Source: a virus (taxonomy: Duplodnaviria > Heunggongvirae > Uroviricota > Caudoviricetes). Taken from it: a DNA stretch of 15,129 nt. Below the pieces are notes generated by a model. That model did not search any database. It had not been told where the DNA came from and worked only from the letters and a program-made list of their open reading frames with translations. Each line of letters begins with the position of its first letter. Position 1 is the first letter of the stretch. Position numbers and translations under genes: made by a program. Where the stretch lies: IMG/VR virus record IMGVR_UViG_2545824713_000012. One strand, 5' to 3'. Shown piece after piece: positions 3,934 to 15,129 of the stretch.

Positions 3934-3951
3934 CTAGTTAATTTCGCTCAC
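3934..3951 (-). pseudogene. Remnant of lambda ea22 start (VSEIN then stop): right-hand junction of the substituted segment
   Basis: Minus strand reads GTG AGC GAA ATT AAC TAG; lambda Ea22 begins MSEIN... as I remember it; start overlaps the orf73 stop (GTGA). Confidence 0.4.
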
Positions 3952-4169
3952 TTCGAACCTCTCTGTTTACTGATAAGCTCCAGATCCTCCTGGCAACTTG
4001 CACAAGTCCGACAACCCTGAACGACCAGGCGTCTTCGTTCATCTATCGGATCGCCACACTCACAACAATGAGTGGCAGATATAGCCTGGTGGTTCAGGCG
4101 GCGCATTTTTATTGCTGTGTTGCGCTGTAATTCTTCAATTTCTGATGCTGAATCAATGATGTCTGCCAT
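3948..4169 (-). CDS. Lambda Orf73-like TraR/DksA-family C4 zinc-finger protein
   Basis: 73-aa ORF MADIIDSASEIEELQRNTAIKMRRLNHQAISATHCCECGDPIDERRRLVVQGCRTCASCQ with CxxC...CxxC motif typical of TraR/DksA; position matches lambda orf73. Confidence 0.85.
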   Translation of the reverse strand: MADIIDSASEIEELQRNTAIKMRRLNHQAISATHCCECGDPIDERRRLVVQGCRTCASCQEDLELISKQRGSK

Positions 4170-4267
4170 CTTCCATTAATCCCTGAATTGTTGGTTAATA
4201 CGCTTGAGGGTGAATGCGAATAATAAAAAAGGAGCCTGTAGCTCCCTGATGATTTTGCTTTTCATGT

Positions 4268-4579
4268 TCATCGTTCCTTAAAGACGCCGTTTAACATGCC
4301 GATTGCCAGGCTTAAATGAGTCGGTGTGAATCCCATCAGCGTTACCGTTTCGCGGTGCTTCTTCAGTACGCTACGGCAAATGTCATCGACGTTTTTATCC
4401 GGAAACTGCTGTCTGGCTTTTTTGATTTCAGAATTAGCCTGACGGGCAATGCTGCGAAGGGCGTTTTCCTGCTGAGGTGTCATTGAACAAGTCCCATGTC
4501 GGCAAGCATAAGCACACAGAATATGAAGCCCGCTGCCAGAAAAATGCATTCCGTGGTTGTCATACCTGGTCTCTCTCAT
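4268..4579 (-). CDS. Lambda orf61-region ORF, here open for 103 aa
   Basis: Start overlaps the orf63 stop by 20 nt as in lambda; N-terminal part MRETRYDNHGMHFSGSGLHILCAYACRHG... is lambda-like; the ORF runs past where I remember the lambda stop, possibly a homopolymer-length difference. Confidence 0.55.
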   Translation of the reverse strand: MRETRYDNHGMHFSGSGLHILCAYACRHGTCSMTPQQENALRSIARQANSEIKKARQQFPDKNVDDICRSVLKKHRETVTLMGFTPTHLSLAIGMLNGVFKER

Positions 4580-4751
4580 CTGCTTCTGCTTTCGCCACCA
4601 TCATTTCCAGCTTTTGTGAAAGGGATGCGGCTAACGTATGAAATTCTTCGTCTGTTTCTACTGGTATTGGCACAAACCTGACTCCAATTTGAGCGAGGCT
4701 ATGTGCCATCTCGATACTCGTTCTTAACTCAACGGGAGATGCTTTGTGCAT
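4560..4751 (-). CDS. Lambda Orf63 homolog
   Basis: 63-aa [66 protein letters not shown], same length and position as lambda orf63. Confidence 0.8.
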   Translation of the reverse strand: MHKASPVELRTSIEMAHSLAQIGVRFVPIPVETDEEFHTLAASLSQKLEMMVAKAEADERDQV

Positions 4752-4912
4752 ACAGCTCCCCGTTTATTATTTATCTCCTCAGCCAGCCGCTGTGCTTTCA
4801 GGGGATTTCGGATAACAGAAAGGCCGGGAAATACCCAGCCTCGCTTCGTAACGGAGTAGACGAAAGTGATCGTGCCTACGCGGATATTATCGTGAGGATG
4901 TTTCATCGCCAT
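4724..4912 (-). CDS. Lambda Orf60a homolog
   Basis: [58 protein letters not shown]...; the lambda-length product would start at the second Met (4906). Confidence 0.8.
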
Positions 4913-5583
4913 TGCTCCCCAAATACAAAACCAATTTCAGCCAGTGCCTCGTCCATTTTTTCGATGAACTCCGGCACCATCTCGTCAAAACTCGCCATGT
5001 AATTTTCATCCCGCTCAACCACGACATAATGCAGGCCTTCACGCTTCATTCGTGGGTCATAGTTGGCAAAGTACCAGGCATCTTTTCGCGTCACCCACAT
5101 GCTGTACTGCACCTGGGCCATGTAAGCTGACTTTATGGCCTCGAAACCACCGAGCCGGAATTTCATGAAATCCCGGGAGGTAAACGGGCATTTCAGTTCA
5201 AGGCCGTTGCCGTCACTGCATAAACCATCGGGAGAGCAGGCGGTGCGCATACTTTCGTCGCGATAGATGATCGGGGATTCAGTAACATTCACGCCGGAAG
5301 TAAACTCAAACAGGGCTCTGGCGTCGTTCTCGTACTGTTTTCCCCAGGCCAGCGCCTTAGCATTAACTTCCGGAGCCACACCGGTGCAAACCTCAGCCAG
5401 CAGGGTGTGGAAGTAGGACATTTTCATGTCAGGCCACTTCTTTCCTGAGCGGGGCTTTGCTATCACGTTGTGAACTTCTGAAGCGGTGATGACGCCGAGC
5501 CGTAATTTGTGCCATGCATCATCCCCCTGTTCGACAGCTCTCACGTCGATCCCGGTACGCTGCAGGATAATGTCCGGTGTCAT
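4903..5583 (-). CDS. exo: Lambda exonuclease (Red alpha), 5'-3' dsDNA exonuclease
   Basis: 226-aa [72 protein letters not shown]... matches lambda Exo; ATGA overlap with bet. Confidence 0.97.
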
Positions 5584-6365
5584 GCTGCCACCTTCTGCTC
5601 AGTGGCTTTCTGTTTCAGGAATCCAAGAGCTTTCACTGCTTCGGCCTGTGTCAGTTCTGACGATGCGCGAATGTCGCGGCGAAATATCTGGGAACAGAGC
5701 GGCAATAAGTCGTCATCCCATGTTTTATCCAGGGCGATCAGCAGAGTGTTAATCTCCTGCATGGTTTCATCGTTAACCGGAGTGATGTCGCGTTCCGGCT
5801 GACGTTCTGCAGTGTATGCAGTATTTTCGACAATGCGCTCGGCTTCATCCTTGTCATAGATACCAGCAAATCCGAAGGCCAGACGGGCACACTGAATCAT
5901 GGCTTTATGCCGTAACATCCGTTTGGGATGCGACTGCCACGGCCCCGTAATTTCTCTGCCTTCGCGAGTTTTGAATGGTTCGCGGCGGCATTCATCCATC
6001 CATTCGGTAACGCAGATCGGATGATTACGGTCCTTGCGGTAAATCCGGCATGTACAGGATTCATTGTCCTGCTCAAAGTCCATGCCATCAAACTGCTGGT
6101 TTTCATTGATGATGCGGGACCAGCCATCAACGCCCACCACCGGAACGATGCCGTTCTGCTTATCAGGGAAGGCGTAAATTTCTTTCGTCCACGGATTAAG
6201 GCCGTACTGGTTGGCGACGATCAACAATGCGATGAACTGCGCATCGCTGGCATCACCTTTAAATGCCGTCTGGCGAAGAGTGGTGATCAGTTCCTGTGGG
6301 TCGACAGAATCCATGCCGACACGTTCAGCCAGCTTCCCTGCCAGCGTTGCGAGTGCTGTACTCAT
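5580..6365 (-). CDS. bet: Lambda Bet (Red beta) single-strand annealing protein
   Basis: 261-aa [71 protein letters not shown]... matches lambda Bet. Confidence 0.97.
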
Positions 6366-6370
6366 CCGTT

Positions 6371-6667
6371 TTATACCTCTGAATCAATATCAACCTGGTG
6401 GCGGGCAATAGTTTCAACCATGTACCGTATGTGTTCTGCCATGCGTTCCTGAAACTCAACATCGTCATCAAACGCACGGGTAATGGCTTTTTTGCTGGCC
6501 CCGTGGCGTTGCAAATGATCGATGCATAGCGATTCAAACAGGTGCTGGGGCAGGCCTTTTTCCATGTCGTCTGCCAGTTCTGCCTCTTTCTCTTCACGGG
6601 CGATCTGCTGGTAGTGACGCGCCCAGCTCTGAGCCTCAAGACGATCCTGAATGTAATAAGCGTTCAT
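6371..6667 (-). CDS. gam: Gam (RecBCD inhibitor), short 98-aa form only
   Basis: [60 protein letters not shown]... matches lambda Gam; strong SD AGGAG 8 nt upstream; in-frame TAA 19 codons upstream with no start codon in between. Confidence 0.93.
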
Positions 6668-6743
6668 GGCTGAACTCCTGAAAATGGCTGTGAAAATATC
6701 GCCCGCGAAATGCCAGGCTGATTAGGAAAACAGGAAAGGGGGG

Positions 6744-7034
6744 TTAGTGATTCAGGCCGTTACCGCGTCCGTCGAGAAAAACTTCCACGAGCAAATCACG
6801 GGTATAAGTGCGCTCGATGCCGCGATGCAGATAAAGCCGTCCGCGTAAATTAGCTGATGCAGTCCAGGTACCATCTTTGTGTTTGACCAGCATTCCTGGC
6901 ATGACCGCACCTCGATTAACGGTCTGCGTTCCGTAATGTTGATGAACCATAAAAACTCCTGCCCGTAAGCTGGGCTGCTGAACATATAAAGACTTCTGCG
7001 CGTATTCAGGCGGTGGATGGCCGCCGGTTGTCAT
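6744..7034 (-). CDS. Hypothetical protein, first ORF of the leftward early operon (occupies the lambda N/cIII/kil position; not N-like)
   Basis: 96-aa ORF MTTGGHPPPEYAQKSLYVQQPSLRAGVFMVHQHYGTQTVNRGAVMPGMLVKHKDGTWTASANLRGRLYLHRGIERTYTRDLLVEVFLDGRGNGLNH; no family recognised; no arginine-rich N-terminal motif; its stop coincides with the point where lambda-like gam-upstream sequence begins. Confidence 0.5.
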   Translation of the reverse strand: MTTGGHPPPEYAQKSLYVQQPSLRAGVFMVHQHYGTQTVNRGAVMPGMLVKHKDGTWTASANLRGRLYLHRGIERTYTRDLLVEVFLDGRGNGLNH

Positions 7035-7227
7035 AACTAAGCCGCCTCGTTGAAGCGACTAAGGTATGAAATGTTGAGTTAATTTCAGCTGGTCACACCG
7101 ACGTTCACGCGTCCGTTTCACCCCTCGCACTCCCCGAAGCCTGCTGAAATTCAAACTGCGGATCTAAGCGGTCATCGCAACGGTGAATCAGGTAGTTGCC
7201 GTATCGTTGTGTTGTTGCGATGAACTT

Positions 7228-7256
7228 ATTTAAAACTATAGTTGTTTTATCGTCAA
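7228..7256 (-). promoter_or_regulatory. PL-like early leftward promoter (-35 TTGACG, 17-nt spacer, -10 TTAAAT) overlapping operator repeats
   Basis: Minus strand GTTGTTGACGATAAAACAACTATAGTTTTAAAT is nearly colinear with the PR sequence GTTGTTGACTAAAAACAACCATAGTTTTAATCT at 8280-8312. Confidence 0.5.
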
Positions 7257-7390
7257 CAACAAAAGTTGTTTTATTGGTTGTTTTAGATATAACTGGTTGT
7301 ATTTAGGATGGATTTATTTTGTGACTTGAATCGCATAGCGATAACTGAAGCGAGGTTATGGTGGTTTTTTTAACGGTGTGTGTGATGAGG

Positions 7391-7423
7391 GGAGGGCAAA
7401 AGAAAACCCGGCACGGTGACCGG
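7391..7423 (-). terminator. Putative intrinsic terminator downstream of the repressor gene
   Basis: Minus strand CCCGG-tcaccgtg-CCGGG followed by TTTTCTTTTG; about 120 nt past the repressor stop. Confidence 0.45.
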
Positions 7424-7545
7424 GATTCTTACGCCGTTAGGTAAAGATATTATTGCGGTGGCTTAATATTACTACCTAGAGCAAAGATAGGAATTAGTTC
7501 TTTACTGAATGAGCACAATGCCCAGTTGATAATTTTTAATTGGTA

Positions 7546-8235
7546 CTACCCATGCTTCCTATATGTCTGCGGCATGCTCCCAATAACCTTACCGAAGATG
7601 AACACCCGGTTCATCTCGTCTTTCTCGATCGGGTCCCACGGTGAGTAGCTTTTGTTATCAGAGATGACCAGCAGCTTATTCTTCATCATTTGCAGGCGCT
7701 TTACATGGGCTGTGTCGTCGTACAGAAACGCATAGATACCATCACCGTCGAAAGATTTAACTGTGATATCAACGAACAGCAGATCACCTGGTTCGATCGT
7801 TCCTGACATGCTGTCACCACGCACGTTAATGATGCGGATATTTTCCGCCTTCCTACCATCGAACATGTGACGAGCATCGTCAAACGAGTACTCAACCGAG
7901 CGTAGAACTTCTACAAACTCACGGTTGATGACTCCCGGCCCAGCACTGACTTCTATATCAAGAACGTCAATCTTGAAGTATTTGGAATGGCTGACAGTTG
8001 ATTGTATTGGTTGCACTGTACTGTCTGACATATTTCCAACGCCAGAAGATAACCATTCTGCGCGCACACCCAAAGCGTTCGCGATCTCCACGATTTTAGT
8101 TGTTTGATTAGCTTTCCCTGTTTCGATTTTCTGAATAGCAGCCTGGCTAACCCCGACCAAATCCCCAAGCGCCTTTTGTGTAAGGCCTCGCGCTAATCTG
8201 GCTTCTTTAAGTCTTTCTGAGAGTGTTGTTTTCAT
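7546..8235 (-). CDS. CI-like prophage repressor (N-terminal HTH_XRE, C-terminal S24 LexA-type autopeptidase)
   Basis: MKTTLSERLKEARLARGLTQKALGDLVGVSQAAIQKIETGK... HTH; Ala-Gly site in VSAGPG; catalytic Ser in RGDSMSG and Lys in HVKRL. I prefer the ATG at 8235 (229 aa) over the ORF-track start at 8301 because the extra 22 codons would overlap the PR -35/operator. Confidence 0.85.
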   Translation of the reverse strand: MKTTLSERLKEARLARGLTQKALGDLVGVSQAAIQKIETGKANQTTKIVEIANALGVRAEWLSSGVGNMSDSTVQPIQSTVSHSKYFKIDVLDIEVSAGPGVINREFVEVLRSVEYSFDDARHMFDGRKAENIRIINVRGDSMSGTIEPGDLLFVDITVKSFDGDGIYAFLYDDTAHVKRLQMMKNKLLVISDNKSYSPWDPIEKDEMNRVFIFGKVIGSMPQTYRKHG

Positions 8236-8277
8236 AGTCCAAATGTACAACCAAGGTTTTATTCCATCAAACGAAAA

Positions 8278-8300
8278 TGGTTGTTGACTAAAAACAACCA
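8278..8300. promoter_or_regulatory. Candidate OR operator: 23-bp palindrome TGGTTGTT-N7-AACAACCA overlapping the PR -35
   Basis: Perfect 8-bp inverted arms; related half-sites ACAACCA/TGGTTGT recur at 8247-8253, 8324-8339 and in the PL region (7275-7281, 7294-7300). Confidence 0.5.
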
Positions 8301-8312
8301 TAGTTTTAATCT
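8284..8312 (+). promoter_or_regulatory. PR-like early rightward promoter (-35 TTGACT, 17-nt spacer, -10 TAATCT)
   Basis: Consensus-like sigma70 elements about 28 nt upstream of the cro-like ATG, which has SD GGAGG at 8330-8334. Confidence 0.6.
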
Positions 8313-8339
8313 TGATTCAAATTAACCACGGAGGTTGTT

Positions 8340-8570
8340 ATGAACCCAGCTATCAAAACAGCGATCAATATCGTTGGTTCACAAAAGAAACTGGGCGCTG
8401 CTTGCGAAGTTTCACAGCAGGCCGTCTATAAGTGGCTTCACAACAAAGCAAAGGTATCCCCTGAACATGTCGGCAGCATTGTTACGGCTACTGGTGGAGT
8501 AGTGAAGGCATACCAGATTCGCCCGGATCTTCCGAAGTTGTTTCCACACACCGAAAAGAACGCAGCTTAA
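8340..8570 (+). CDS. Cro-like HTH regulator (YdaS family)
   Basis: 76-aa ORF MNPAIKTAINIVGSQKKLGAACEVSQQAVYKWLHNKAKVSPEHVGSIVTATGGVVKAYQIRPDLPKLF; HTH plus the C-terminal RPD motif I associate with Rac YdaS; divergent from the repressor across the PR/operator region. Confidence 0.8.
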   Translation: MNPAIKTAINIVGSQKKLGAACEVSQQAVYKWLHNKAKVSPEHVGSIVTATGGVVKAYQIRPDLPKLFPHTEKNAA

Positions 8571-8582
8571 ATTTCCATTTCA

Positions 8583-8595
8583 CGCTCTTTAACAA
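8583..8595 (+). promoter_or_regulatory. boxA-like element CGCTCTTTAACAA (rrn-consensus type) in the cro-ydaT intergenic region
   Basis: 12/13 match to rrn boxA TGCTCTTTAACAA as remembered; no convincing boxB hairpin seen after it. Confidence 0.35.
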
Positions 8596-8639
8596 TAAGC
8601 AATCAACTTAACAGTCAATTCAAACTAAAGGAGTCAATT

Positions 8640-9179
8640 ATGCAACCACTTACATACCAACAGACTAGCGGATTTAGCCCGACTGCGGTGATAAATCGTT
8701 CTCAAACAAAACAGGTGCCAGGCCACGAAAAAATCCGTGATGCCGTCCGCGCCTGGTCGGCTGTAGATAATCAGGATGTCGTTGCCACACTCATTGTGAA
8801 TGAGTATCGGGAGCAGGGCGGCGGCACCATCGATTTCCCTGATGATGTCAGCCGTGCACGCCAGAAGCTGTTCCGCTTCCTCGATAACAAATTCGATTCT
8901 GAAAAATACCGAAATAATGTGCGTGAACTGACCCCGGCAATTCTGGCGGTACTACCGCTGGAATATCGCGGTTACCTGGTTGAGCAGGATAGCTTCATGG
9001 CTAGGTTGGCTGAAATGGAAAAGGAACTCAGTGAGGCAAAACAGGCTGTCATTCTCAACGCACCACGCCACCAGAAACTGAAGGAAATTAGTGAAGGTAT
9101 TGTGTCGATGTTTCGTGTGGACCCAGATCTGGCTGGTCCATTGATGGCGATGGTTACTACCATGCTGGGGGCGATATGA
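8640..9179 (+). CDS. YdaT-family protein (Rac prophage YdaT-like, in the cII position)
   Basis: 179-aa ORF; segments LIVNEYREQGGGTIDFP and LTPAILAVLPLEYRGYL resemble Rac YdaT (EEYLRQGGGELPL, KLIPAILAILPRELRHR) from memory; strong SD AAGGAG upstream. Confidence 0.75.
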   Translation: MQPLTYQQTSGFSPTAVINRSQTKQVPGHEKIRDAVRAWSAVDNQDVVATLIVNEYREQGGGTIDFPDDVSRARQKLFRFLDNKFDSEKYRNNVRELTPAILAVLPLEYRGYLVEQDSFMARLAEMEKELSEAKQAVILNAPRHQKLKEISEGIVSMFRVDPDLAGPLMAMVTTMLGAI

Positions 9180-9265
9180 CAGGTTCAGAAATGGCGAAAG
9201 CCGGTCTGCTGGAACAGAACCGACTTTCAGGTGCAAATCGTAACACACTCATTGCGGGAGGAATT

Positions 9266-10195
9266 ATGGCAAACACTGCTGAGATATTCAATTTTCCAGT
9301 GCCGGATGCGGCACAAAAGGAGCCGCGCGTGGCAGATCTCGATGATGGTTATACGCGCATTGCAAATGAGTTGCTGGAAGCTGTGATGCTGGCCGGATTA
9401 ACACAGCACCAGCTTCTGGTCTTCCTGGCTGTCATGCGCAAAACATATGGCTTTAATAAAAAACTGGATTGGGTGAGCAACGAGCAACTTTCCGAGTTGA
9501 CCGGGATATTGCCGCACAAGTGTTCTGCTGCAAAAAGTGTTCTGGTAAAGCGTGGGATTTTTATTCAGAGTGGGCGGAATATCGGCATTAATAATGTGGT
9601 CAGTGAATGGTCAACATTACCCGAATCAGGTAAGAAAAATAAAGTTTACCTGAAAGAGGTAAATTTACCTGAATCAGGTAAGAAAAGTTTACCCAAATCA
9701 GGTAAAGGCGTTTACCCGAATCAGGTAAACACAAAAGACAAACTAACAAAAGACAATATAAAACCTTTTTCGTCCGAGAATTCTGGCGAATCCTCTGACC
9801 AGCCAGAAAACGACTTTCCTTTGGAGAAACTGGATGCTGCAATTCAGAGCGGCAGCAAGTGGGGGACAGCAGAAGACCTGACCGCCGCAGAGTGGATGTT
9901 TAACATGGTGAAGACCATCGCGCCCTCAGCCAGAAAACCGAATTTTGCAGGGTGGGCTAACGATATCCGCCTGATGCGTGAACGTGACGGACGTAACCAC
10001 CGCGACATGTGCGTGCTGTTCCGCTGGGCATGCCAGGACAACTTCTGGTCCGGTAACGTGCTGAGTCCGGCCAAACTCCGCGACAAGTGGACCCAACTCG
10101 AAATCAACCGTAACAAGCAACAGGCTGGCGTGACAACCGGAAAATCAAAACTCGACCTGACAAACACTGACTGGATTTACGGGGTGGATTTATGA
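9266..10195 (+). CDS. O: Lambda O-type replication initiator
   Basis: MANTAEIFNFPVPDAAQKEPRVADLDDGYTRIANELLEA... aligns with lambda O N-terminus (MTNTAKILNFGRG...VADLDDGYARLSNMLLEA); C-terminal third is nearly identical to lambda O; SD GGGAGG before the ATG at 9266; the ORF-track start at 9176 is an upstream in-frame extension. Confidence 0.93.
   Translation: MANTAEIFNFPVPDAAQKEPRVADLDDGYTRIANELLEAVMLAGLTQHQLLVFLAVMRKTYGFNKKLDWVSNEQLSELTGILPHKCSAAKSVLVKRGIFIQSGRNIGINNVVSEWSTLPESGKKNKVYLKEVNLPESGKKSLPKSGKGVYPNQVNTKDKLTKDNIKPFSSENSGESSDQPENDFPLEKLDAAIQSGSKWGTAEDLTAAEWMFNMVKTIAPSARKPNFAGWANDIRLMRERDGRNHRDMCVLFRWACQDNFWSGNVLSPAKLRDKWTQLEINRNKQQAGVTTGKSKLDLTNTDWIYGVDL
9617..9773. repeat. Replication origin inside O: five 17-19-bp palindromic iterons (TTTACC-N7-GGTAAA) followed by an A/T-rich tract
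   Basis: Iterons at 9617-9633, 9645-9663, 9664-9682, 9688-9706, 9711-9729 (e.g. TTTACCCGAATCAGGTAAA), then ACACAAAAGACAAACTAACAAAAGACAATATAAAACCTTTTT; same organisation as lambda ori but different iteron sequence. Confidence 0.75.
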
Positions 10196-10893
10196 AAAAC
10201 ATCGCCGCACAGATGGTTAACTTTGACCGTGAGCAGATGCGCCGGATCGCCAACAACATGCCGGAACAGTACGACGAAAAGCCGCAGGTACAGCAGGTAG
10301 CGCAGATCATCAACGGTGTGTTCAGCCAGTTACTGGCAACTTTCCCGGCGAGCCTGGCTAACCGTGACCAGAATGAACTGAACGAAATCCGCCGCCAGTG
10401 GGTTCTGGCTTTCTGGGAAAACGGGATCACCACAATGGAACAGGTTAACGCTGGAATGCGCGTAGCCCGTCGGCAGAATCGACCATTCCTGCCATCACCC
10501 GGGCAGTTTGTCGCCTGGTGCCGGGAAGAAGCATCCGTTACCGCCGGGCTGCCAAACGCCAGCGAGCTGGTTGATATGGTTTACGAGTATTGCCGGAAGC
10601 GCGGGCTGTATCCGGATGCAGAGTCTTATCCGTGGAAATCAAACGCGCACTACTGGCTGGTTACCAACCTGTATCAGAACATGCGGGCCAATGCGTTGAC
10701 TGACGCGGAATTACGGCGCAAGGCTGCCGATGAACTGTCCTGTATGACCGCACGAATTAACCGTGGTGAGGCTATACCTGAACCAGTAAAACAACTTCCT
10801 GTCATGGGCGGTAGACCTCTAAATCGTGCACAGGCTCTGGCGAAGATCGCAGAAATCAAAGCTAAGTTTGGGCTGAAAGGAGCAAGGGTATGA
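10192..10893 (+). CDS. P: Lambda P replication protein (DnaB helicase loader)
   Basis: 233-aa ORF MKNIAAQMVNFDREQMRRIANNMPEQYDEKPQVQQVAQIINGVFSQLLATFPASLANRDQNE... near-identical to lambda P; ATGA overlap with O. Confidence 0.95.
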   Translation: MKNIAAQMVNFDREQMRRIANNMPEQYDEKPQVQQVAQIINGVFSQLLATFPASLANRDQNELNEIRRQWVLAFWENGITTMEQVNAGMRVARRQNRPFLPSPGQFVAWCREEASVTAGLPNASELVDMVYEYCRKRGLYPDAESYPWKSNAHYWLVTNLYQNMRANALTDAELRRKAADELSCMTARINRGEAIPEPVKQLPVMGGRPLNRAQALAKIAEIKAKFGLKGARV

Positions 10894-11192
10894 CGGGCAA
10901 AGAGGCAATTATTCATTACCTGGGGACTCATAAGAAATTCTGTGCGCAGGACGTTGCCGCGGTAACAGGCGCAACGGTAACCAGCATAAATCAGGCTGCG
11001 GCTAAAATGGCGCGGGCAGGAATCCTGGTCGTTGATGGTAAGGTCTGGCGAACGGTGTATTATCGGTTCGCTACCAGAGAAGAATGGGAAGGAAAGGTGA
11101 GCACGAATTTGATTTTTAAGGAGTGTCGCCAGAGTGCCGCGATGAAACGGGTATTGAGGGTATATAAAAGAACATCAATGGGTACACAATGA
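10890..11192 (+). CDS. ren: Ren-like protein with divergent C-terminus
   Basis: MTGKEAIIHYLGTHKKFCAQDVAAVTGATVTSINQAAAKMARAGILVVDGKVWRTVYYRFATREEWEGK... matches lambda Ren up to ...AAMKRVL, then ends RVYKRTSMGTQ instead of the lambda tail. Confidence 0.85.
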   Translation: MTGKEAIIHYLGTHKKFCAQDVAAVTGATVTSINQAAAKMARAGILVVDGKVWRTVYYRFATREEWEGKVSTNLIFKECRQSAAMKRVLRVYKRTSMGTQ

Positions 11193-11259: not shown

Positions 11260-11592
11260 ATGAATCCTTATATTTATCTTGGTGGTGCAATACTTGCAGA
11301 GGTCATTGGTACAACCTTAATGAAGTTTTCAGAAGGTTTTACACGGTTATGGCCATCTGTTGGTACAATTATTTGTTATTGTGCATCATTCTGGTTATTA
11401 GCTCAGACGCTGGCTTATATTCCTACAGGGATTGCTTATGCTATCTGGTCAGGAGTCGGTATTGTCCTGATTAGCTTACTATCATGGGGATTTTTCGGCC
11501 AACGGTTGGACCTGCCAGCCATTATAGGCATGATGTTGATTTGTGCCGGTGTGTTGGTTATTAATTTATTGTCACGAAGCACACCACATTAA
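11260..11592 (+). CDS. emrE: EmrE small multidrug resistance (SMR) efflux transporter
   Basis: 110-aa product MNPYIYLGGAILAEVIGTTLMKFSEGFTRLWPSVGTIICYCASFWLLAQTLAYIPTGIAYAIWSGVGIVLISLLSWGFFGQRLDLPAIIGMMLICAGVL... matches E. coli EmrE; the ORF-track start at 11206 is an upstream extension; SD AGGA before 11260. Confidence 0.9.
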   Translation: MNPYIYLGGAILAEVIGTTLMKFSEGFTRLWPSVGTIICYCASFWLLAQTLAYIPTGIAYAIWSGVGIVLISLLSWGFFGQRLDLPAIIGMMLICAGVLVINLLSRSTPH

Positions 11593-11622
11593 AAATAATT
11601 TGTTTTTAAACGACTAAAATAT

Positions 11623-11660
11623 GGAGGCTCGTATATTTATATGGGCCTCGTTTTATGCTT
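11623..11660 (+). terminator. Possible imperfect terminator hairpin after emrE
   Basis: GAGGC...GCCTC stem with a long AT loop followed by GTTTTATGCTTTTTG; weak. Confidence 0.3.
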
Positions 11661-11847
11661 TTTGTTAATGTCTTTAGTTTTTATTCATTCTTTTGTGCTT
11701 TCAAGATTATGGTGTAAGAAAATTGCAATACGATTATTGTTGTATATTCAAGATAATGTGACCTTAATTGTCTTTTTAAATAAAAATTAAACAAAAATCA
11801 TATCTCACCACTAAGGTTTATAAAAGCATACTTTAGCAGGTGTCACC

Positions 11848-13374
11848 ATGAAAAAAGCCATAGCATATATGCGATTTTCATCACCAGGTCAGATGTCTGG
11901 TGATTCATTAAACCGCCAGAGAAGGCTTATTACTGAATGGCTAAAGGTAAATAGTGATTATTACCTTGATACCGTAACGTATGAAGATTTGGGGTTAAGC
12001 GCATTCAATGGAAAGCATGCACAATCAGGAGCTTTTTCGGAATTTTTAGATGCTATAGAACATGGTTATATATTGCCAGGGACTACATTGTTAGTTGAAA
12101 GTCTGGACAGACTTTCAAGAGAAAAAGTCGGTGAAGCGATTGAGCGTCTGAAATTGATTTTGAATCACGGTATTGATGTTATAACTCTTTGCGATAATAC
12201 AGTCTATAATATTGACTCATTGAATGAGCCATATTCATTAATAAAAGCCATACTTATAGCACAAAGGGCAAATGAAGAAAGCGAGATAAAGTCAAGTCGG
12301 GTTAAATTATCATGGAAGAAAAAACGGCAGGATGCACTGGAGTCAGGCACGATTATGACGGCGTCTTGTCCGAGATGGCTCTCATTGGATGACAAAAGAA
12401 CGGCTTTTGTTCCAGACCCCGACAGGGTGAAAACTATTGAGCTAATTTTTAAACTCAGGATGGAAAGGCGCTCATTGAATGCAATAGCCAAGTATTTAAA
12501 TGATCATGCTGTAAAGAATTTCTCAGGAAAAGAAAGTGCATGGGGACCTTCTGTAATTGAAAAATTATTAGCGAATAAAGCTCTGATAGGTATATGCGTA
12601 CCTTCATATCGTGCAAGAGGTAAAGGAATAAGTGAAATCGCTGGCTATTATCCCAGAGTCATATCAGATGATTTGTTTTACGCTGTGCAGGAAATTCGGT
12701 TGGCACCTTTTGGTATTAGCAATAGTAGCAAAAATCCTATGTTGATAAATCTACTTCGAACAGTTATGAAGTGCGAGGCTTGTGGTAATACCATGATTGT
12801 TCATGCGGTATCTGGAAGTTTGCATGGCTATTATGTTTGTCCGATGAGAAGACTGCATCGATGTGACAGGCCATCAATAAAGAGAGATTTGGTTGATTAT
12901 AATATCATTAATGAGTTGCTTTTTAATTGTAGTAAAATCCAACCAGTTGAAAACAAGAAAGATGCTAATGAAACTTTAGAGTTGAAAATTATTGAGCTCC
13001 AGATGAAAATTAATAATTTAATTGCTGCATTATCTGTTGCGCCTGAAGTTACCGCTATAGCAGAAAAAATCAGAGTATTAGATAAGGAATTACGAAGGGC
13101 TTCTGTATCATTAAAAACTTTGAAGAGTAAAGCGGTGAGTTCACTTGGTGATTTTCATGCTATTGACTTAACCAGTAAAAATGGGCGAGAGCTATGTCGT
13201 ACACTTGCCTATAAAACATTCGAAAAAATCATAATCAATACAGATAATAAAACCTGTGATATCTATTTTATGAATGGCATTGTTTTTAAACACTATCCTT
13301 TAATGAAAACAATATCTGCCCAGCAGGCGATAAGTACTCTCAAATATATGGTTGATGGTGAGGTTTATTTTTGA
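11848..13374 (+). CDS. ybcK: Large serine recombinase (YbcK family; N-terminal resolvase/invertase catalytic domain, recombinase and zinc-ribbon domains)
   Basis: 508-aa ORF MKKAIAYMRFSSPGQMSGDSLNRQRRLITEWLK... with catalytic Ser in the YMRFSS motif; matches DLP12 YbcK as remembered; SD AGGTG upstream; AT-rich. Confidence 0.85.
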   Translation: MKKAIAYMRFSSPGQMSGDSLNRQRRLITEWLKVNSDYYLDTVTYEDLGLSAFNGKHAQSGAFSEFLDAIEHGYILPGTTLLVESLDRLSREKVGEAIERLKLILNHGIDVITLCDNTVYNIDSLNEPYSLIKAILIAQRANEESEIKSSRVKLSWKKKRQDALESGTIMTASCPRWLSLDDKRTAFVPDPDRVKTIELIFKLRMERRSLNAIAKYLNDHAVKNFSGKESAWGPSVIEKLLANKALIGICVPSYRARGKGISEIAGYYPRVISDDLFYAVQEIRLAPFGISNSSKNPMLINLLRTVMKCEACGNTMIVHAVSGSLHGYYVCPMRRLHRCDRPSIKRDLVDYNIINELLFNCSKIQPVENKKDANETLELKIIELQMKINNLIAALSVAPEVTAIAEKIRVLDKELRRASVSLKTLKSKAVSSLGDFHAIDLTSKNGRELCRTLAYKTFEKIIINTDNKTCDIYFMNGIVFKHYPLMKTISAQQAISTLKYMVDGEVYF

Positions 13375-14704: not shown

Positions 14705-15031
14705 ATGACTAAAAATACTCGTTTTTCCCCCGAAGTCCGTCAACGGGCAGTCCGTATGGTTCTGGAAAGTCAGAGCGAATATGACTCACAATGGGCGACA
14801 ATTTGTTCCATTGCTCCAAAGATTGGCTGTACGCCGGAGACTCTGCGTGTCTGGGTTCGCCAGCATGAGCGGGATACCGGGGGCGGTGATGGAGGGCTCA
14901 CCACCGCTGAACGTCAGCGTCTGAAAGAGCTGGAACGTGAAAATCGTGAACTGCGCCGCAGTAACGATATCCTTCGCCAGGCTTCCGCTTATTTTGCGAA
15001 GGCGGAGTTCGACCGCCTCTGGAAAAAATGA
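14705..15031 (+). CDS. IS3-family transposase OrfA (HTH DNA-binding subunit)
   Basis: 108-aa [111 protein letters not shown]. Confidence 0.9.
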
Positions 15032-15129
15032 TGCCACTGCTGGATAAGCTGCGTGAGCAGTACGGGGTCGGACCGCTATGCAGCGAACTGCATATTGCCC
15101 CGTCAACGTATTACCACTGTCAGCAACAG
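15027..15129 (+). CDS. IS3-family transposase OrfB (DDE catalytic subunit), 5' partial within window
   Basis: -1 frame relative to orfA; [34 protein letters not shown]...; overlaps the orfA stop across an A-rich slippery stretch (GGAAAAAATGATG). Confidence 0.8.

Follow-up and report, generated by a model that had tools for sequence, protein, structure and literature searches.

The rightward operon of the prophage carried in the 15,129-nt stretch of DNA analysed here (the window) begins with two genes whose Pfam families bear the names of bacterial toxins, YdaS and YdaT, and replication genes of lambda type lie downstream. This raises the question of what the two genes are, whether they belong to a Rac-type module that has replaced lambda cro and cII, as the original prediction had it, and how they are connected to the replication genes. 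In our reading the region is the early-right (immunity and replication) part of an ordinary lambdoid prophage, equipped with Cro and CII of the phi80 type and with an M3/oop-like RNA, and we put the probability of this reading at about 0.88. The features on which it is based are collected in Table 1.

Table 1. Positions of features in the 15,129-nt window, with the evidence used for each
Feature	Position	Strand	Evidence
ybhC (next in order come int/xis, exo, bet and gam of lambda type)	1–1284
OL/pL region	7207–7306		Operator-like repeats AAAAC-N7-GTTTT and GGTTGTT/AACAACC, paralogous to the OR copies
Hairpin and T-run resembling an intrinsic terminator	7407–7424	−	Downstream of repressor gene, at end of pRM transcript; terminator scan
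CI-type repressor (HTH_3 and Peptidase_S24), 229 aa	7546–8235	−	Pfam, PHROGs, RefSeq CDS
OR with divergent promoters	8236–8339		Sequence reading, repeat and promoter scans
Cro analogue, 76-aa YdaS-family HTH protein	8340–8570	+	Pfam, PHROGs, PDB matches
Orphan boxA consensus CGCTCTTTAACAA	8583–8595	+	Single exact match in window, in 69-nt cro–cII spacer
CII analogue, 179-aa YdaT-family protein, phi80 cII orthologue	8640–9179	+	Pfam, PHROGs, structure model
Predicted M3/oop-like antisense sRNA, about 60–70 nt	9184–9255	−	Covariation, G.U asymmetry, fold, phi80 position
pO-like promoter, TTGAAT-17-CATAAT with upstream TG	9263–9291	−	Promoter scan, alignment to lambda
Replication initiator O, 309 aa (probable start)	9266–10195	+	BLASTP, profile matches, frames of related loci
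Origin iterons in O, period about 19–23 nt, roughly five copies	9617–9729		Tandem repeat finder
Lambda-type P helicase loader	10192–10893	+	PF06992, blastn to lambda

The prophage in the window is lambdoid and occupies att-lambda, the attachment site of lambda. When it was compared with lambda by blastn, DNA homology was found at 1331–2962, 3936–6750 and 9729–11165, with 98.7 % identity in the int–xis segment and 93.6 % over 9729–11165. The intervening segment at 6751–9728 is non-lambda and comprises a kil-like ORF, OL/pL, the CI-type repressor gene, OR, the YdaS and YdaT genes, an 86-nt spacer and the 5' half of O with its iterons. Since lambda homology resumes only at 9729, the description of the region as a mosaic is correct as far as the junction with lambda-type O and P is concerned, but the right-hand joint lies inside O, after the iterons, and not at the border between cII and O.

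At the left of the operon the gene map agrees with the claim that the YdaS and YdaT genes are the first two of a rightward operon facing a CI-type repressor, the 76-aa gene heading the operon and diverging from the repressor gene across the operator region. The repressor scores 66.7 bits on PF00717 and 49 bits on PF01381; its ORF is mechanically open to 8301, and both the phrog_4 match and the RefSeq annotation begin at M23 (8235). Within OR a 25-bp palindrome, ATGGTTGTTGACTAAAAACAACCAT (8277–8301), overlaps the TTGACT −35 element of the rightward promoter, and an operator-like repeat, AAAACAACCATAGTTTT, is present at 8291–8307. A repeat search identified inverted and direct repeats common to 7230–7306 and 8247–8311, and a leftward promoter-like stretch, GTTGTTGACGATAAAACAACTATAGTTTTAA, is found on the minus strand of OL/pL at about 7262–7230. 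We envisage that a SOS-cleavable CI-type repressor, together with divergent pRM and pR at OR, would control the rightward operon, and that CI would bind the repeated operators at both OR and OL.

The product of the first gene, which is preceded by a GGAGG Shine–Dalgarno sequence 5 nt before its ATG, matches YdaS_toxin (PF15943) with 62.2 bits (E 4e-17; Pfam cut-off 30 bits), in agreement with its description as a YdaS-family Cro-like HTH protein. It also matches phrog_35, ‘transcriptional repressor’, and in the PDB it matches best the Cro proteins 3bd1 and 5w8y, of the all-alpha, P22-Cro-like class. The YdaS of CP-933P binds OR and represses pRM/pR (PMC8630535), and the protein encoded here may similarly bind OR and shut down pRM. 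The spacer between this gene and the next contains the boxA listed in Table 1, after which no boxB hairpin was found, and the fold of the spacer is no better than that of shuffled sequences. In some relatives this spacer contains a boxA like that of lambda, and the boxB sequence of lambda, GCCCTGAAAAAGGGC, comes after it. The direct repeat AATTGACT (8613 and 8632) was considered and dropped, being neither enriched in the window nor present in relatives.

The second gene encodes a 179-aa protein that matches YdaT_toxin (PF06254) with 103.5 bits (E 8.5e-30; Pfam cut-off 21 bits), as had been claimed, and phrog_163, ‘CII-like transcriptional activator’, with an E value of 4e-67. Both proteins thus lie well above the cut-offs when searched against the YdaS and YdaT Pfam families and, the similarity being significant, their family assignment in the original prediction stands. 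An AAGGAG Shine–Dalgarno sequence lies 6 nt upstream of 8640, and this start is supported by full-length homologues of 179–180 aa, which share 50–74 % identity and occur throughout the Enterobacteriaceae. In an AlphaFold model of the protein (mean pLDDT 76.8) residues 1–26 are disordered, residues 28–112 form a globular HTH domain and residues 119–178 form long helices, including one at 119–138. The only significant PDB matches of the model in Foldseek were the YdaT crystal structures 3c4r and 8bt1 (probability 1.0, target TM score 0.66–0.70, rmsd 3.1–3.8 over 117–121 columns), to which the protein is about 26 % identical, and a sequence search of the PDB yielded the same two entries. The predicted structure agrees with 8bt1 and 3c4r in having a POU-like HTH domain of five helices and, after it, a long helix in the place of their oligomerization helix; the entry 8bt1 bears the description ‘YdaT transcription regulator (CII functional analog)’. 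Members of the subfamily hardly vary in the recognition helix, RQKLFRFLDN, which is similar to the one in CP-933P YdaT, and the motif QK[IL]FR[WF]LD is common to this YdaT and the 179-aa protein.

The suggestion that YdaT proteins are analogues of CII has been borne out in the literature (PMC5917428, PMC8630535, PMC9986795, PMC11879457). [quoted passage not shown] Rac YdaT activates the reverse promoter PracR4 via a YdaT-box that lies over the ATG of its gene (PMC11879457), and CP-933P YdaT activates PRE933P (PMC8630535, PMC9986795). The other function that has been attached to these genes, that of a toxin–antitoxin or toxin–repressor pair serving host killing or addiction instead of phage regulation, takes its support from the Pfam names ‘Bacterial toxin YdaS/YdaT’ and from the toxicity of Rac YdaS and YdaT on over-expression (PMC5700377, PMC5700373). 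However, this toxicity has been interpreted in a letter by Jobling as an over-expression artefact that is common to lambda CII (PMC5917428), CP-933P YdaT lacks toxicity and acts as an activator of a PRE-like promoter (PMC8630535), YdaT is a DNA-binding HTH tetramer (PMC9986795), and for relatives both the lack of growth arrest at physiological expression from pR and binding to operator or promoter have already been shown. In the present prophage the two genes take the places of cro and cII in a complete immunity region, the phi80 orthologue of the 179-aa protein is an annotated cII gene and no toxin fold is found among the Foldseek matches of the model. A role as a toxin pair is therefore scarcely credible, and we treat the two genes as a Cro and a CII.

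As to the origin of this pair, the closest comparison is with phi80. In tblastn searches of phage genomes the phi80 cII product was 66 % identical to the 179-aa protein over the full length (179/180 aa), and the annotated CII proteins of mEp237, HK225 and HK639 were 52–67 % identical. By contrast, K-12 Rac YdaT shows 35 % identity over 96 aa, and K-12 Rac YdaS 30 % identity over 63 aa to the 76-aa protein; on the YdaT Pfam model phi80 cII scores 98.7 bits and Rac YdaT 44.7 bits. The racR–ydaS–ydaT genes of Rac and the paaR2–ydaS–ydaT genes of CP-933P (O157:H7) are of the same families, occupy the same cro and cII slots and have a divergent repressor gene, but that repressor is RacR or PaaR2, not a CI of the S24 type, and Rac has ydaU/ydaV where O and P are found here. 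Compared with the YdaT proteins of Rac and CP-933P the 179-aa protein is also longer, with an extra N-terminal tail of 27 aa and additional C-terminal helices. By identity, repressor and replication genes alike, the region does not belong to the Rac immunity module racR–ydaS–ydaT–ydaU–ydaV. The label ‘Rac-type’ cannot be retained, as identity to Rac is confined to 30–35 % over partial lengths and the repressor is a CI of the HTH and S24 type instead of a RacR; the full-length identity to phi80 cII makes phi80-type cII the precise label, with Rac as a distant cousin. As judged from its sequence, the YdaT-family gene at 8640–9179 is a CII gene of the phi80 type.

The gene order of phi80 (X13065, JX871397) is cI, OR, gene 30 (Cro-like), cII, M3 RNA, gene 15 and gene 14, in which M3 RNA is annotated on the opposite strand as a ‘homolog of lambda oop RNA’, gene 15 as ‘similar to lambda O’ and gene 14 as ‘similar to lambda P’. 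The O-like protein of phi80 is 42 % identical to the O protein here, has the same start and is followed by a P-type loader. Since phi80 has a YdaT-family CII before genes of O and P type, the arrangement is a classical one and not a new mosaic. There are nevertheless differences from phi80. The repressors are only 24 % identical and the Cro similarity is marginal (E 0.003), from which it follows that the immunity specificity differs; O in its C-terminal half and P throughout are of lambda sequence; and X13065 annotates an N gene, whereas no N-like ORF is found between pL and the kil-like ORF in the window. With lambda (cro–cII–oop–O–P) the region shares the functional slots and nearly identical sequences in the C-terminal half of O, P and ren, but its Cro and CII come from different sequence families and it has no N gene, no nutR boxB and no TTGC-N6-TTGC near cII.

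Where a CII of this type would act was considered next to the known boxes. The YdaT-box (TTGATT-N6-AATCAA) was not found with fewer than three mismatches in 8480–8700 and is no commoner in the window than chance predicts (16 matches when up to three mismatches are allowed, 12.6 expected), an absence that bears on target specificity and not on membership of the YdaT family. The promoter scan found no consensus leftward promoter between cro and cII (8480–8700), as is to be expected because an establishment promoter would depend on an activator. The lack of a recognizable box for this CII and of such a promoter counts against our reading. The lambda CII box, TTGC-N6-TTGC, is absent near cII and occurs in the window only at the lambda-type pI, where it is intact (TTGCGTGTAATTGC, 2698–2711). 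Synonymous-site conservation is 0.80–0.83 over about the first 20 codons of cII, against 0.50–0.79 across most of the rest, and is matched only by the last five codons (0.86). This rise at the 5' end hints at a candidate CII site; the family consensus of the conserved stretch reads ATGCAaTCACTTaCgTaTCAACA, and the first 60 nt or so contain two A(A/T)TCA(A/C)-like half-sites, 12 bp apart and in direct orientation. Covariation between the half-sites and the recognition helix was also looked for, with CA-containing half-sites in codons 2–8, and gave no correlation, the helix RQKLFRFLDN being essentially invariant. The phage combines a phi80-type CII with a lambda int–xis segment, an intact CII box at pI and no N gene. 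Our tentative suggestion, which we consider doubtful, is that the phi80-type CII uses a site still to be mapped, a candidate being the conserved first 60 nt or so of its own gene, or else that the supply of Int in lysogenization is independent of CII in this very common phage group. In the former case this or another site would also have to serve pI. If this were true, mapping of the site would reveal which DNA code is read by the commonest CII family outside lambda.

Between cII and the start of homology to O lies the 86-nt spacer, which is more conserved than the coding DNA on either side. In a consensus fold of 56 distinct sequences a 13-bp hairpin shows compensatory changes in ten of its 13 pairs, with 97 % of cells paired; none of 500 shuffles reached the observed values, and in slid controls pairing dropped to 40–51 %. 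Read leftward, the hairpin contains 64 G.U pairs and 22 mismatches, whereas read rightward it contains eight and 78, respectively, and a T-rich tail follows the stem on the leftward strand only (a mean of 4.8 versus 2.2 T in 10 nt). The G.U asymmetry and the tail together assign the hairpin to the leftward strand. The predicted RNA would consist of a 5' stem-loop, the 13-bp terminator hairpin (9196–9228) and a U-rich tail (9186–9195), its ends (about 9255 to about 9184–9190) being placed from lambda oop and phi80 M3; the fold z-score is −2.7 for the predicted RNA of about 70 nt, −4.1 for phi80 M3 and −4.3 for lambda oop. Variants of the 5' stem-loop align in different registers. Upstream of the predicted RNA, the −10 element of the pO-like promoter, CATAAT, is complementary to the sequence around the O start codon, an arrangement identical to that of lambda pO (TTGAGT-17-CATAAT), and in all 56 related loci this element is CATAAT, CATACT or CATTAT, with the upstream TG in 51 of them. 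The phi80 spacer is 85 nt long and its M3 gene aligns to the same place, although the hairpin sequence here belongs to a different variant class. Taken together, the covariation, the strand asymmetry, the pO-like promoter and the alignment to M3 mark the spacer as a putative antisense RNA gene of M3/oop type, and we conclude from these comparisons that it is probably non-coding. Like lambda oop, the predicted RNA has two stem-loops. Lambda oop overlaps the cII coding region, but an overlap with the 3' coding end of cII is absent here, where the RNA ends about 8–16 nt past the cII stop codon (9177–9179); the annotated M3 of phi80 likewise ends 16 nt past the stop, without overlap. Rfam gave no match in the region at E≤1.

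The same hairpin might instead act on the rightward mRNA, as a tR1-like terminator, a nut- or put-like site or a processing site. A hairpin can form on either strand, and the lack of an N gene together with an orphan boxA upstream makes an unusual control of rightward transcription conceivable. This is highly improbable, however, in view of the 78 mismatches and eight G.U pairs of the rightward reading against 22 and 64 of the leftward one, the leftward orientation of both the T-rich tail and the conserved extended −10, the annotation of the phi80 counterpart, M3, as a leftward RNA, and a rightward-strand fold of 9170–9270 that is no better than shuffles. Put- or nut-like RNA was sought in the cII–O spacer (rightward), the cro–cII spacer and the pL leader and rejected, the folds being no better than shuffles; a small coding ORF (MAKAGLL...) in the cII–O spacer was discarded, since relatives have frame shifts and stops in it; and the terminator scan showed no intrinsic terminator inside the 3' end of cII. 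We therefore retain the leftward, antisense RNA.

The presence of this spacer with its predicted antisense RNA also speaks against the idea that the YdaT gene feeds directly into O, as does the lack of conservation of the reading frame upstream of O. The original prediction was right that genes of lambda O and P type follow (Phage_rep_O PF04492, 116 bits; Phage_lambda_P PF06992, 207.9 bits) and that an ATGA is present at 9176–9179, but the ATG at 9176 is not supported as the start of O, since homology begins at 9266. An O of 339 aa starting at 9176, translationally coupled to the YdaT-like gene via the ATGA, would agree with the open frame, with a G-rich stretch preceding 9176 and with the annotation of O in both RefSeq and the GenBank phage record. 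In BLASTP, on the other hand, the alignment with lambda O begins with M31 (9266) opposite lambda M1, with 65 % identity, the alignment with phi80 gp15 and the PHROGs profile matches begin at the same residue, and a GGGAGG Shine–Dalgarno sequence is located 4 nt before the ATG at 9266. In 55 of 57 related loci the cII stop and the conserved ATG are 82–89 nt apart, in lengths that are not multiples of three, and the frame upstream of the conserved ATG is closed in 25 of the 57; the same spacer precedes unrelated downstream genes in related loci, and the compensatory changes within the spacer track RNA pairing and not codon structure. We thus think a start at 9176 unlikely, and regard the 339-aa form as probably an ORF extension and the overlap as most likely an accident of the open frame.

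With O starting at 9266, its DNA is non-lambda in the N-terminal half and lambda in the C-terminal half. The position of the lambda joint at 9729, directly after the iterons, suggests that the N-terminal domain and the iterons travel together; this domain and its iterons would have a specificity of their own, while the C-terminal domain and P would be those of lambda. In related loci the cII unit is joined to O and P, to O and DnaB, to a loader of DnaC/IstB type or to small ORFs, and this variety downstream of cII is ordinary lambdoid modular exchange.

Our working hypothesis is that pR, once derepressed or after infection, expresses Cro of the YdaS type and CII of the phi80 type, and that CII, by analogy, would oligomerize and act as an HTH activator of a leftward promoter for establishment, close to the 5' end of its own gene. 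Its activity would drive synthesis of the repressor after infection, as for lambda CII and the YdaT proteins of Rac and CP-933P, and the small RNA may pair with the intercistronic mRNA between cII and O and so damp the expression of cII, of O or of both.

The arrangement is widespread. The 1.8-kb stretch 7500–9300 matches 2226 of 5426 complete Escherichia coli genomes, with a match covering at least 80 % of the query in 1504 of them, many of which are 100 % identical. Isolated phages, among them PhiR34_1, IdasGreatGrand, 4A7 and D2, also match and have the genes labelled cI, Cro, cII and O; PhiR34_1 is 99.9 % identical, and E. coli K-12 MG1655 is given in its record as the host. The YdaS/YdaT switch is real, looks functional and was already known, and its layout is already present in the phi80 record X13065. 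Nothing in it is new in kind; the useful outcome consists of corrections, namely phi80 type in place of Rac type, the start of O and the predicted small RNA that had gone unannotated, and they bring no new biology. The finding matters mainly for annotation: the ‘toxin YdaT domain-containing protein’ and ‘transcriptional regulator’ of about 40 % of complete E. coli genomes are CII and Cro of a genetic switch of phi80 type, and the ‘replication protein’ that is widely annotated with 339 aa probably has a spurious extension of 30 residues, which masks an oop/M3-like antisense RNA gene.

A gene for an antisense small RNA resembling M3 of phi80 and oop of lambda is predicted on the minus strand between the cII-type gene and the replication initiator gene O, where no such annotation exists; both RefSeq and GenBank instead draw the O ORF across the region. 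The predicted gene has an extended -10 promoter, which overlaps the O start codon, and a terminator hairpin with strong covariation. Further into O, the tandem iterons end at 9729, the exact point at which DNA homology to lambda resumes, and this joint is a classical recombination joint separating the origin-binding half of O from the P-binding half. Coordinates of these and the other features are collected in the table.

Features located in the window
Feature	Coordinates	Strand	Remarks
lambda pI CII-binding box	2698-2711	minus	TTGCGTGTAATTGC; upstream of xis, intact
kil-like ORF	6744-6950	minus	first leftward ORF
Leader, pL to kil-like ORF	7040-7225	minus	about 275 nt, GC-rich
CI-type repressor, mechanical ORF	7546-8301	minus	22-codon N-terminal extension reaching into OR
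boxA	8583-8595		exact consensus, CGCTCTTTAACAA; cro-cII spacer
Antisense small-RNA gene (M3/oop-like), predicted	9184-9291	minus	promoter and covarying terminator hairpin
Tandem iterons within O	9617-9729		units about 19-23 nt, TTTACCxGAAxCAGGTAAA-like
IS3-family insertion sequence	14705-15129		right window edge
orfA of IS3-family element	14705-15031
ALIL frameshift pseudoknot of IS3-family element	14986-15102		Rfam RF01497, 120 bits

For the CI-type repressor, profile matches and the RefSeq annotation agree on a start at 8235; the long form is the one given in the GenBank record of the isolated phage PhiR34_1. The first 20 or so codons of the cII-type gene (8640-8700) encode a tail that is predicted to be disordered, and across the 57 related loci their synonymous sites are more conserved than those of most other gene parts. 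By analogy with lambda and Rac, this conservation may reflect an overlapping cis-element, for example pRE or a CII box.

No boxB hairpin accompanies the boxA in the cro-cII spacer, whereas at the equivalent position one relative (L151) carries a lambda-like boxA with the boxB sequence of lambda, GCCCTGAAAAAGGGC, after it. On the leftward side, the stretch from pL/OL (about 7207-7306) to the kil-like ORF contains no N-like antiterminator gene (6951-7306). The pL leader contains a 12-nt inverted repeat (7081-7092 and 7140-7151); its fold energy does not improve on that of shuffled sequences, which gives no support to a put-like RNA here.

Cargo genes occupy the nin region 3' of ren (11260-13374): one is emrE, which encodes an efflux pump of the SMR type, and the other codes for a serine recombinase resembling ybcK. 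At the opposite side of the window, the pI box upstream of xis is the sole occurrence of TTGC-N6-TTGC; the prophage has kept the lambda CII-binding box of pI, although its CII is itself of the phi80 type and not of the lambda type.
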